Below are positions 6,679 through 15,450 of a stretch of 64,000 nucleotides of DNA, one piece after another. The notes beneath the pieces are model-generated. The model ran no database searches. It was not told the origin of the DNA and saw nothing but the letters and a program-made list of their open reading frames with translations. Made by a program: the position numbers and the translations under genes. Every line of letters starts with the position of its first letter. The stretch's first letter is position 1. Where the stretch lies: NCBI RefSeq assembly GCF_057098645.1, contig NZ_CM169472.1. One strand, given 5' to 3'.

Positions 6679-8091
6679 ATGGTAGATCAGGTAAAAGTCG
6701 TTGCCGATGATCAGGCTCCGGCTGAACAGTCGCTACGGCGCAATCTCACAAACCGACATATTCAGCTTATTGCCATTGGCGGTGCCATTGGTACGGGGTT
6801 GTTTATGGGGTCCGGCAAAACGATTAGCCTTGCCGGGCCGTCGATCATTTTCGTTTATATGATCATTGGTTTTATGCTCTTTTTCGTGATGCGGGCAATG
6901 GGGGAATTGCTGCTTTCGAATCTGGAATACAAATCTTTTAGTGACTTCGCTTCCGATTTACTCGGGCCGTGGGCAGGATATTTCACCGGCTGGACTTACT
7001 GGTTCTGCTGGGTTGTAACCGGTATGGCAGACGTGGTGGCGATCACGGCTTATGCTCAGTTCTGGTTCCCCGATCTCTCCGACTGGGTCGCCTCGCTGGC
7101 GGTGATAGTGCTGCTGCTGACGCTTAACCTCGCCACCGTGAAAATGTTCGGTGAGATGGAGTTCTGGTTTGCGATGATCAAAATCGTCGCCATTGTGTCG
7201 CTGATTGTCGTCGGCCTGGTCATGGTGGCGATGCACTTTCAGTCACCGACTGGTGTGGAAGCGTCATTCGCGCATTTGTGGAACGATGGCGGATGGTTCC
7301 CGAAAGGTTTAAGTGGCTTCTTTGCCGGATTCCAGATAGCGGTTTTCGCTTTCGTGGGGATTGAGCTGGTAGGTACAACAGCTGCGGAAACCAAAGATCC
7401 AGAGAAATCACTGCCACGCGCGATTAACTCCATTCCGATCCGTATCATTATGTTCTACGTCTTCGCGCTGATTGTGATTATGTCCGTGACGCCGTGGAGT
7501 TCGGTAGTCCCGGAGAAAAGCCCGTTTGTTGAACTGTTCGTGTTGGTAGGGCTGCCTGCTGCCGCAAGCGTGATCAACTTTGTGGTGCTGACCTCTGCGG
7601 CGTCTTCCGCTAACAGCGGCGTCTTCTCTACCAGCCGTATGCTGTTTGGTCTGGCGCAGGAAGGTGTTGCGCCGAAAGCGTTCGCTAAACTTTCTAAGCG
7701 CGCAGTACCCGCGAAAGGATTGACCTTCTCGTGTATCTGTCTGCTCGGCGGCGTGGTGATGTTGTATGTGAATCCTAGCGTGATTGGCGCGTTCACGATG
7801 ATTACAACCGTTTCCGCGATTCTGTTTATGTTCGTCTGGACGATTATCCTTTGCTCGTACCTGGTGTATCGCAAACAGCGACCTCATCTGCATGAGAAGT
7901 CGATCTACAAGATGCCGCTCGGCAAGCTGATGTGCTGGGTATGTATGGCGTTCTTTGTGTTCGTGGTCGTGTTGCTGACACTGGAAGATGACACTCGCCA
8001 GGCGCTGTTGGTCACCCCGCTGTGGTTTATCGCACTGGGGCTGGGCTGGTTGTTTATTGGTAAGAAGCGGGCTGCTGAACTGCGGAAATAA
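6679..8091 (+). CDS. cycA: D-serine/D-alanine/glycine:H+ symporter CycA
   Basis: 470-aa polytopic APC-family permease. Confidence 0.95.
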   Translation: MVDQVKVVADDQAPAEQSLRRNLTNRHIQLIAIGGAIGTGLFMGSGKTISLAGPSIIFVYMIIGFMLFFVMRAMGELLLSNLEYKSFSDFASDLLGPWAGYFTGWTYWFCWVVTGMADVVAITAYAQFWFPDLSDWVASLAVIVLLLTLNLATVKMFGEMEFWFAMIKIVAIVSLIVVGLVMVAMHFQSPTGVEASFAHLWNDGGWFPKGLSGFFAGFQIAVFAFVGIELVGTTAAETKDPEKSLPRAINSIPIRIIMFYVFALIVIMSVTPWSSVVPEKSPFVELFVLVGLPAAASVINFVVLTSAASSANSGVFSTSRMLFGLAQEGVAPKAFAKLSKRAVPAKGLTFSCICLLGGVVMLYVNPSVIGAFTMITTVSAILFMFVWTIILCSYLVYRKQRPHLHEKSIYKMPLGKLMCWVCMAFFVFVVVLLTLEDDTRQALLVTPLWFIALGLGWLFIGKKRAAELRK

Positions 8092-8135: not shown

Positions 8136-8798
8136 TCACTCACCCGCCAGCGCGCGTGGGAACAGTACATTGTTTTCCAGGCTGATGTGATCCATCAGGT
8201 CATCAATCAGTTCATTAATGCCGTTATACATCGCTTTCCAGGTGGTGCAGGCTTCCGGCGGCGGTGTGACGTTATTGGTAGTGTGTTTGATCACTTCCAG
8301 CAGTTCACCCGCTTCATCGTGCTCGCTTTCCATTACGCTGATTGGCCCCATTGCCTGGCTGCCCATGCCTTGTTTGATCATCGGGAAGAGGATCTGCTCT
8401 TCTTTCATCATGTGGCTGGAAAGCTCTTCATGCAGCATAGTCAGGTATTTTGTCAGCCCCTTTGGTACGCTCGGTTTGTCGGCGTGAACGCGCTCGACTT
8501 TAGTCGCTTGCAGGATCAGCTCCGGCAGTTGCTCGCGGTGACGATCGTGGTAGCGCACGATGATATGGTCAATGATTTCTGCCAGCGGGGCGCTACGCCA
8601 GTCTTTCTCAATCGGTTGTTCAGCAAGCTTTGCCAGTTCAGCTTCAATGACCTCAACATCCAGTTCTTTACGTGCCGCCGCACGCGCCAGCGTTTGCTTA
8701 CCGCCGCAGCAGTAATCCATATCATATTTACGAAACAGAGCCGAAGCGCGAGGGATAGAGAGCGCCAGTTCACCTAAAGGTTGGTCGCGATAAGCCAT
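8136..8798 (-). CDS. ytfE: iron-sulfur cluster repair di-iron protein YtfE (RIC)
   Basis: 220-aa [36 protein letters not shown]. Confidence 0.95.
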
Positions 8799-8824
8799 AG
8801 CTGATACCTCATTTTTAATAAGAT

Positions 8825-8847
8825 AAGATGTATTTTAAATGCATCTT
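8825..8847. promoter_or_regulatory. NsrR operator in ytfE promoter
   Basis: Palindrome aagatgtattttaaatgcatctt 27 bp upstream of the ytfE start codon, matching the known NsrR consensus. Confidence 0.65.
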
Positions 8848-8905
8848 TAAGGCAAAAGCTATAACCCTTACGTAGCAGAGGCTTATTTAACTCACTGCCA
8901 GCGTG

Positions 8906-9880
8906 TCAACTTTCTGAGACAGATTCAGTTAAAGGTTTTTCTGGTTTTGCTCTGACCGCGATGACCACGCCAATCACTAACAGCGCGATACCGCTCAGCG
9001 TCATTAGCGGCGGCATTTGCTGGCGGAGTAAAAAGGTGTACAGCAAACCTGCCAGCGTTTCGAAAACAATCAGCGGCCCGAGAATCACTGTCGGTAATCG
9101 CTGGCTGGCGACGTTCCAGCAGAGTGCGCCAACCCATGAGCAAAGCACGGCTATCGCAATCATCAGACTAATAAACACCAGCGGACGGGGGCCAAAGGGT
9201 AGGGAGAAGTCCGGCGTTTGCGTATTCAGCCAGTAACAAGCGACGAGATAGCCGATAAGTGAAACCGGCAGTGTGACCAGCGCCTGCGCTGTTGCCCACA
9301 TCATCGGATGTTTGTCGGGATTTTCCCGCAACCAGCGGGCGTTGCGCAGGGCATACCACGCCCAGCAGACCACGGAAACTAACGCCAGCACGATGCCAGA
9401 GGTATAACGTGCCCAGTCAAAATCGGGGAGTCCGTGGTTTAACTCAGCAATATTCACACACGCCAGGCCGATGCCAATACAAATCAGTGCCGGGGCGAGT
9501 TTTCCCCACGCGAGTTTGCCGTCGCGCTGGCTATAAAGCAGATTGGCAAAGACAGGAATCACCACCGGCAGGGTGCCGATAATCATCGTGGAAACAGGCG
9601 CGCCAGTACGTTGAATGGCACTGGCAAGGCAGAAGTAATAAATGAGGTTGCCCATCATAGTGAGCATCAAGGCGGTAAGCCAGTCCCGACGCGCCAACTG
9701 ACGCAGACGCACGCGTCCCAGCCAGGCAATGGGCAGCGCAATTAACCCTAACGCCAGATAACGCCCCATCGACTGCAACATCGCCGGGTATTCCGGTACG
9801 ATCAACGGCCCGACAAAAATAAGCCCCCACATCAACCCTGCTAACAGGGCGTACAGCACGCCGCTAATCATTACTGGCAT
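8906..9880 (-). CDS. ytfF: EamA/DMT-family inner membrane transporter YtfF
   Basis: Hydrophobic 10-TM-like ORF; true start may be the Met at 9871. Confidence 0.85.
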   Translation of the reverse strand: MPVMISGVLYALLAGLMWGLIFVGPLIVPEYPAMLQSMGRYLALGLIALPIAWLGRVRLRQLARRDWLTALMLTMMGNLIYYFCLASAIQRTGAPVSTMIIGTLPVVIPVFANLLYSQRDGKLAWGKLAPALICIGIGLACVNIAELNHGLPDFDWARYTSGIVLALVSVVCWAWYALRNARWLRENPDKHPMMWATAQALVTLPVSLIGYLVACYWLNTQTPDFSLPFGPRPLVFISLMIAIAVLCSWVGALCWNVASQRLPTVILGPLIVFETLAGLLYTFLLRQQMPPLMTLSGIALLVIGVVIAVRAKPEKPLTESVSES

Positions 9881-13559: not shown

Positions 13560-14300
13560 ATGTTAGATCAAGTATGCCAGCTTGCACGGAATGCAGGCGA
13601 TGCCATTATGCAGGTCTACGACGGGGCGAAACCGATGGACGTCGTCAGCAAAGCGGACAATTCTCCGGTAACGGCAGCGGATATTGCCGCACACACCGTT
13701 ATCATGGACGGTTTACGTACGCTGACACCGGATATTCCGGTCCTTTCTGAAGAAGATCCTCCCGGTTGGGAAGTCCGTCAGCACTGGCAGCGTTACTGGC
13801 TGGTAGACCCACTGGATGGTACGAAAGAGTTTATTAAACGTAATGGCGAATTCACCGTTAACATTGCGCTCATTGACCATGGCAAACCGATTTTAGGCGT
13901 GGTGTATGCGCCAGTAATGAACGTAATGTACAGCGCGGCAGAAGGCAAAGCGTGGAAAGAAGAGTGCGGTGTGCGCAAGCAGATTCAGGTCCGCGATGCG
14001 CGCCCGCCGCTGGTGGTTATCAGCCGTTCCCATGCAGATGCGGAGCTGAAAGAGTATCTGCAACAGCTTGGCGAACATCAGACCACGTCCATCGGCTCTT
14101 CGCTGAAATTCTGCCTGGTGGCGGAAGGACAGGCGCAGCTGTACCCGCGCTTCGGACCAACGAATATTTGGGACACCGCCGCTGGACATGCTGTGGCTGC
14201 AGCTGCCGGAGCGCATGTTCACGACTGGCAGGGTAAACCGCTGGATTACACTCCGCGCGAGTCGTTCCTGAATCCGGGGTTCAGAGTGTCTATTTACTAA
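13560..14300 (+). CDS. cysQ: 3'(2'),5'-bisphosphate nucleotidase CysQ
   Basis: 246-aa inositol-monophosphatase-family ORF (WLVDPLDGT motif). Confidence 0.95.
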
Positions 14301-14511
14301 ATTCAGATGGCAGAAACAGTGTATTTCCTGATTCTGCCATCCTGATTTCTCCCAACCTAAAAAGTTATAAATAAAAAGAGATTGTATTTAAAGTGCAAAA
14401 ATTCAATTGCTAATAAGTTACATTTTAATAATGAGCGTTTTTTGATAGTTTACTTTTATAATGAGATATTTAATGGCGACATAAAGTAACCAAATAAAAT
14501 AAGGTTGTCAT

Positions 14512-15450
14512 ATGTTACCCAAGATCAGACACAATAATTTTATTGGTGCGGTGGAGTTATTTGTAAAGTCTTCGTATACAAAAACACATTCAAACAATTT
14601 TTTTAACAATATCCAGCATGCATTTAATAAAAAAGATTGGATTTCGAATTATGATAGCCTGTTAACTTTGCGGGAGTTCTTTCGTTGCGCAACTCAGATT
14701 GATAAAGATAGTTATCAAGTGCTTTCATCAAAAAATGAAACTGTTAAAGCCATGGATAAGTTTCTTATCAGTTTCAGCCTTAAAGATAACGGTGCCGAAT
14801 ATACAATGACATTGCGAGGTAGTGGATTTGAATACGAAGAAATACCCATAACAATAAATGAATATAACTCATTCATGGATTTCAAAAACCGCGAGTTTCC
14901 GTTAGAACAAAACAGAAGATTGTATGCCTGGGATATTTTGCAGAAAAAACAGTCTGACATACCGAAAAGGATTAAAGGTTATATTCACCAGGCGATTGGT
15001 GACGTGTCTTTAGGTTATGCCTTATTGGAGGATATAGTAAGCAAATTAAAACGGGGTAAATTTGAACTCCAAATACCAGGAGGTGGAATTAAAGAATGCG
15101 ATGGATGGTATATTTACGAAAAAATAATTGATGATAATTTTGCCATAGTCATAGAATCTTTGGGCTTTGCGCTTAAAATCTATGGAGGGGATGAACGTTT
15201 TCGTAATGGTTCCTCTGTTGTTTTGGAGGATGAAGATTACTCTCTTATTTATAATTTTCTGGTTAATGCAGGTTGCCAACAAGTCGAATTAGCCGAACAA
15301 GTGGATGCGATAGTAAGTGCGAATCTGGCCGCAGATAGTGATATTACCAAAGAAAAGATTTGCGAGAAATATAAATCGACCATTGAGGCGTTTAAAAAAG
15401 AGCAACTAGCGTTACCAGTATTAGTTCGGCGTAAGAACTCAGAGACTTAA
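14512..15450 (+). CDS. ytfI: uncharacterized protein YtfI
   Basis: 312-aa ORF in a visibly AT-rich segment; no recognisable domain. Confidence 0.78.
   Translation: MLPKIRHNNFIGAVELFVKSSYTKTHSNNFFNNIQHAFNKKDWISNYDSLLTLREFFRCATQIDKDSYQVLSSKNETVKAMDKFLISFSLKDNGAEYTMTLRGSGFEYEEIPITINEYNSFMDFKNREFPLEQNRRLYAWDILQKKQSDIPKRIKGYIHQAIGDVSLGYALLEDIVSKLKRGKFELQIPGGGIKECDGWYIYEKIIDDNFAIVIESLGFALKIYGGDERFRNGSSVVLEDEDYSLIYNFLVNAGCQQVELAEQVDAIVSANLAADSDITKEKICEKYKSTIEAFKKEQLALPVLVRRKNSET

Follow-up and report, generated by a model that had tools for sequence, protein, structure and literature searches.

Positions 8825-8847 of the window (the whole stretch of DNA that was analyzed, 64,000 nucleotides in length) constitute, with a probability of roughly 0.93, an NsrR operator in the ytfE promoter, at which holo-NsrR represses the gene and nitric oxide (NO) derepresses it. 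For this reading, the sequence, its fit to an NsrR matrix, the identity of the downstream gene and the conservation of the site come from the present analysis; the in vivo occupancy by NsrR, the induction by NO and nitrate, and the chemistry of the cluster come from the literature. The 23-bp operator, recovered by a repeat finder, a position weight matrix (PWM) and the comparison of species loci, is an inverted repeat of the 11-1-11 type. On the plus strand it reads aagatgtattttaaatgcatctt, also written AAGATGTATTTTAAATGCATCTT (i.e., AAGATGTATTT-T-AAATGCATCTT), and on the minus strand, which is the sense strand of ytfE, AAGATGCATTT-A-AAATACATCTT. The repeat finder defines two arms of 11 nt each (8825-8835 and 8837-8847) that are 10/11 (91%) complementary and separated by a 1-nt spacer, so the near-perfect palindrome claimed by the first-pass annotation is present. 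The promoter-distal half-site AAGATGCATTT (8837-8847, minus strand) matches the published 11-bp motif exactly, whereas the promoter-proximal half-site AAGATGTATTT (8825-8835, plus strand) contains the sole asymmetry of the palindrome, a T at 8831 in place of the C that perfect symmetry would demand. The arrangement of inverted copies of the 11-bp motif AANATGCATTT around a 1-bp spacer is that of an E. coli-type NsrR operator, and the degenerate consensus AAGATGYATTTNAAATRCATCTT matches the site with 0 mismatches.

The operator and the ytfE ATG are separated by 26 nt (8799-8824), which places the proximal edge of the operator at -27, as had been annotated, and its full span at 27-49 bp upstream of the ATG. 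The gene itself occupies 8136-8798 on the minus strand and encodes a di-iron Fe-S cluster repair protein of 220 aa. The NCBIfam profile NF008221 ('iron-sulfur cluster repair protein YtfE', with a cutoff of 254 bits) recognizes its product with 416.7 bits, and TIGR03652, a profile for the Fe-S repair di-iron protein, does so with 268.7 bits; in addition, of 5426 complete E. coli genomes, 5416 contain a match to a 401-nt query over the region, annotated as ytfE/ytfF. The naming of the downstream gene as ytfE is thereby borne out, and the operator sits in the control region of a member of the nitrosative-stress regulon. Its Shine-Dalgarno sequence GAGG (8807-8810, minus strand), 8 nt before the ATG, is invariant in all 81 sequences of the alignment described below. 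The neighboring genes are cycA (6679-8091, plus strand) and ytfF (8906-9880, minus strand). The region of the ytfE promoter (8600-9000) has three E. coli matches located on plasmid records and not on chromosomes, and one genome carries two copies. A tblastn search of the 64-kb window with an NsrR query sequence did not find nsrR (best E = 3.4), which, by the K-12 map, presumably lies outside it.

The matrix was derived from the 27 NsrR sites of the 11-1-11 type published for E. coli CFT073 (ChIP-seq and predicted sites; Table 4, PMC5320621). The ytfE site and one duplicate were left out, and the remaining 25 sites were symmetrized and converted to a log-odds matrix. A PWM score below threshold had been named beforehand as the outcome that would speak against the operator; the check was run, and the operator scores 30.03 bits out of a maximum possible 30.93. 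This is above all 25 training sites, which reach 12.2-26.0 bits although they are inside the matrix, and 13 bits above the next-best position in the window (16.8 bits). The corresponding iid probability is 7e-13 (ln P = -27.9); the cut-off of ln P -14.28 given in the publication refers to a different matrix than the one used here. When up to three mismatches are allowed, AAGATGYATTTNAAATRCATCTT has 1 match in the 64-kb window and 0 in 100 dinucleotide-preserving shuffles.

Purifying conservation of both the sequence and the position of the operator is strong across Enterobacteriaceae. A scan of a genome collection with the YtfE protein yielded 80 loci from different species of the family (Escherichia, Enterobacter, Citrobacter, Klebsiella, Raoultella, Kluyvera, Kosakonia, Lelliottia, Buttiauxella, Cedecea, and others), which together with the window form an alignment of 81 sequences; Escherichia is represented by the window and loci L001-L003. 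In all 80 loci, a 23-mer of 24.4-30.6 bits precedes the ytfE ATG by 24-27 nt (by exactly 26 nt in 63 of them), and the site is thus conserved in orthologous promoters. Majority conservation in the alignment amounts to 94.5% in the operator columns, compared with 53% in the upstream intergenic DNA and 50% at the end of ytfF. Fourteen of the 23 operator columns are invariant in 81/81 sequences, while variation occurs, among others, at 8831 (sense strand: 43 G, 38 A), 8834 (57 A, 24 T), 8844, 8841, 8828, and 8827. Most of the variable positions vary among published NsrR sites too, and the substitutions seen in the species keep the -10-like center of the palindrome.

The operator is already known and described, and its confirmation adds no new biology. 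Rodionov et al. (2005) derived the consensus gATGyAT-N5-ATrCATc and ranked 'ytfE (dnrN) -46, score 5.99', with the 19-bp core GATGCATTTAAAATaCATC, highest among the E. coli candidates; the 19-bp core of the window operator is identical to it. The same authors cite Spiro for the involvement of the repeat in NsrR repression of ytfE. Together with the PWM score and the identity of the gene, this match to the 2005 prediction supports the earlier designation of the site as a canonical NsrR operator. In E. coli CFT073, Mehta et al. (2015, PMC5320621) found by ChIP-seq an NsrR peak at 50 bp upstream of ytfE and observed a 69.6-fold induction of the gene by nitrate. The CFT073 ytfE site, AAGATGCATTTAAAATGCATCTT, occupies the same locus, has the same 11-1-11 architecture and stands at the top of the regulon: it heads the 11-1-11 list with a PatSer ln P of -25.13, and its 11-mer AAGATGCATTT has the top score in the table (10.92) (PMC5320621). 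In E. coli K-12 MG1655, the 23-mer is identical to that of the window and has the same distance from ytfE; a single base of the leader differs (A in the window versus G in MG1655, near 8814), and none within the site.

The ytfE site is a textbook member of the NsrR regulon and its highest-scoring one in E. coli. NsrR was characterized through the ytfE promoter, and the same promoter is used as an NO biosensor: in EHEC, PytfE serves as an NO reporter, with an NO donor releasing the NsrR repression. The operator can therefore be regarded as a positive control, showing that a real operator is recognizable from sequence alone. The added value of the present analysis is modest and consists of a footprint drawn from 80 species, the finding that the operator is polymorphic within E. 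coli, and a conserved NarL/NarP-like block.

The polymorphism concerns position 8831. The T allele of the window and K-12, an imperfect palindrome, was found in 4201 complete E. coli genomes with a 40-nt query, and the C allele of CFT073, a perfect palindrome, in 1035; the two queries gave no cross-matches, as megablast requires a 28-nt exact word. About 180 E. coli genomes are matched by neither query. The window operator thus differs by one base from the CFT073 allele, which is the one assayed by ChIP-seq, and the difference sits on a position that is degenerate (y/r) in the 2005 consensus.

According to mechanistic work, NsrR acts as a [4Fe-4S] homodimer that binds a 23-bp operator via its winged-helix domains, and NO disrupts the binding. 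The closest structural view is offered by S. coelicolor [4Fe-4S]-NsrR on the hmpA1 operator (crystal structure, PMC9338935), likewise a 23-bp pseudo-palindrome bound by one dimer. The central bases of that operator have no direct contact with the protein, and NO-driven degradation of the cluster frees the DNA (PMC9338935). The sequence of the S. coelicolor operator is different (AACACGAATATCATCTACCAATT); moreover, ScNsrR does not bind sequences of the EcNsrR type, and the DNA-contacting residues differ between the two proteins (PMC9338935).

Judging from -10-like hexamers and their position, the operator probably overlaps the ytfE promoter; which of the hexamers is the -10, and hence the exact mode in which polymerase is blocked, we infer as follows. 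The center of the palindrome contains the candidate -10 TAAAAT (8832-8837, minus strand), for which transcription is predicted to start at ~8824-8825. Its T1, A2, A5, and T6 (read from 8837 to 8832) are invariant in 81/81 sequences, and all of its variants (TAAAAT, TAATAT, and TATAAT) are -10-like. Another -10-like hexamer, TATCTT (8820-8825, minus strand), abuts the operator. In 8700-9000, a simple search for consensus sigma-70 promoters yielded no -35/-10 pair, and neither hexamer has a good -35 partner. No experimental ytfE start site was present in the Cappable-seq and SMRT-Cappable-seq supplements or in the NsrR/ytfE literature that was searched.

NsrR belongs to the Rrf2 family and is a homodimer with an iron-sulfur cluster; at the ytfE operator, each 11-bp arm (AAGATGCATTT) would be read by one of its winged-helix domains. 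Mutagenesis by Partridge et al. (2009) is said to have revealed that both 11-bp motifs are required for full repression of ytfE. As the operator holds the -10-like TAAAAT at its center, bound holo-NsrR most likely excludes polymerase from the -10 and the start site, keeping ytfE off. With TAAAAT as the -10, NsrR would cover approximately -23 to -1. Nitrosylation of the cluster by NO would abolish the affinity of NsrR for DNA, and ytfE would be transcribed.

The geometry of the same NsrR operator could also be different, although this is rather unlikely. If the real -10 were the downstream hexamer, TATCTT/TATATT at 8825-8820, transcription would start near 8812-8813, and NsrR would lie over approximately -12 to -34 (the spacer and the -35 region) and not over the -10 and the start. 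T8825, A8824, and T8823 are invariant, and with A at 8822 the hexamer becomes TATATT in 78 of 81 sequences and even TATAAT in some Kosakonia. Around the corresponding start, 8813 is a purine in 76/81 sequences and 8812 is A in 80/81. As 8820-8824 are conserved outside the 23-mer, contacts with NsrR do not explain their conservation, which counts in favor of the downstream hexamer. On the other hand, its last T is not invariant (75/81), and the leader would be just ~14-15 nt long. The central -10 is favored by the candidate NarL/NarP site with the 7-2-7 arrangement located upstream of the operator (see below): its center would then fall near -44.5/-45.5, comparable with NarL at yeaR (-43.5) and ogt (-44.5), whereas the downstream -10 would move it to near -56.5. 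Bodenmiller and Spiro (2006) reportedly described the repeat as overlapping the -10, which also agrees with the central hexamer. Regardless of the -10 assignment, the segment 8820-8826 (TTATCTT on the minus strand), outside the 23-mer, could be either an alternative -10 or a conserved start-site/discriminator region.

It is very improbable that the palindrome is bound by a regulator other than NsrR (IscR, FNR, Fur, or another member of Rrf2). Paralogues within Rrf2 do recognize palindromes of similar size (PMC9338935); however, the sequence virtually coincides with the NsrR consensus, and ChIP-seq assigns the site to NsrR (PMC5320621). In Salmonella, ytfE is upregulated 10-fold in a fur mutant and has been listed with a putative Fur motif, an effect that may be indirect. 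A Fur-box scan revealed no box in the present loci: the best 19-mer match reaches 10-12/19, and its position is inconsistent across species. For FNR, inspection by eye shows that the AAGAT/ATCTT ends of the palindrome are 13 nt apart and do not fit TTGAT-N4-ATCAA.

An even less credible explanation is that the palindrome operates at the RNA level, as a hairpin in the 3' region of ytfF (a terminator) or in the ytfE leader. The site is an inverted repeat on the same strand as ytfF, 59 nt downstream of its stop codon. However, the fold of 8860-8810 has an energy of -4.9 kcal/mol (z = -1.04), a value attained equally well by 36 of 200 shuffles, and the 1-nt spacer is too short for a loop. The stem is AU-rich and not followed by a T-run, and a terminator scan of 8700-9000 was empty. 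Compensatory changes are also absent: 8831 varies while its partner 8841 remains C in 74/81 sequences. Finally, the possibility of a functionless chance palindrome is negligible: the intergenic region is AT-rich and weaker PWM matches occur elsewhere (e.g., 16.8 bits at the ARG boxes of argI), but chance is excluded by the empty shuffles, the PWM P of ~7e-13, and the conservation across 80 species, in which the position is invariant and the sequence near-invariant while the flanking DNA has diverged.

A second, looser inverted repeat (13-nt arms, 77%) brackets the operator at 8797-8809/8850-8862. Pairing of the Shine-Dalgarno/AUG region with upstream sequence through these arms was considered and rejected: no co-variation was found in other genera, and the 8850-8862 arm is upstream of both candidate start sites, which argues against such pairing. 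Several other readings of the neighboring sequence were discarded as well. An FNR box TTGAC-acgc-TGGCA at ~8909-8896 was rejected by eye due to its poor right half, and a sigma-54 -24/-12 reading of GGG...TTGC (8867-8852) due to the lack of conservation of the GC element. An NsrR half-site reading of AAGGGTTATAG was rejected by eye, with 5/11 matching positions.

Upstream of the operator, a conserved block at 8862-8877 (minus strand), TGCTACG-TA-AGGGTTA, constitutes a candidate NarL/NarP site, its function being suggested by resemblance to the 7-2-7 consensus TACYYMT-NN-AKRRGTA (inverted TACYYMT heptamers with a 2-bp spacer). Rodionov et al. (2005) had already pointed to candidate NarP sites in front of dnrN in enterobacteria. 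The window matches the consensus at 10/14 positions, a level attained by 221 of its ~64,000 positions. In 65 of the 81 sequences, the match rises to 11-13/14 at a fixed position relative to the NsrR site; at least 11/14 is reached at just 33 of the ~64,000 window positions. The consensus of the block across species is TnCCyCn-AA-AGGGkTA. Its center is 32 nt from the center of the palindrome in 76/81 sequences and 33 nt in Escherichia (the window and L001-L003), where, compared with the other 77 of 81 sequences, an extra base is found at 8857 between the block and the operator. The Escherichia sequences also have the weakest 7-2-7 match. Judging from the sequences, the extra base and the weak match may reflect a lineage-specific weakening of the Nar input.

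The arrangement resembles that of the yeaR-yoaG promoter, which is likewise induced by nitrate and NO and has an NsrR 11-1-11 site, with a NarL 7-2-7 site (-43.5) upstream of the core promoter. Unlike at yeaR-yoaG, NarL/NarP at ytfE is only predicted, the Escherichia 7-2-7 match being 10/14. A tentative and on balance doubtful extension of the NsrR operator reading is that ytfE is a two-input switch like yeaR, in which NarL/NarP would activate from the 7-2-7 site ~44-45 bp upstream of the start and NsrR would gate the -10. The Nar input would have partly decayed in Escherichia (10/14, with the insertion at 8857 altering the spacing), and the two operator alleles could set different basal levels of ytfE. 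Another 7-2-7-like match, a weaker one, is located at 8805-8820 (minus strand) over the Shine-Dalgarno sequence (TATTGAT-GA-CGAGGTA in many genera, 10-12/14). In ~20 species it is the best-scoring 7-2-7 match; probably it is a by-product of the conserved GAGGTA.

Elsewhere in the window, the second-best match to the NsrR matrix (16.8 bits) is an AT-rich palindrome at 56766-56788, in the argI operator region. It lies 34 nt ahead of argI (ornithine carbamoyltransferase), which is divergent from rraB, and presumably represents ArgR boxes rather than a target of NsrR. Weak AT-rich matches of 12-16 bits are found at 58059-58081, 58444-58466, 14379-14401, 14615-14637, and 51200-51222; by matrix score, they fall among the weakest published NsrR sites. 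Two of the weak matches are situated in the gap between the open reading frames 13560-14300 and 14512-15450, and one at the start of the open reading frame 58025-59248.
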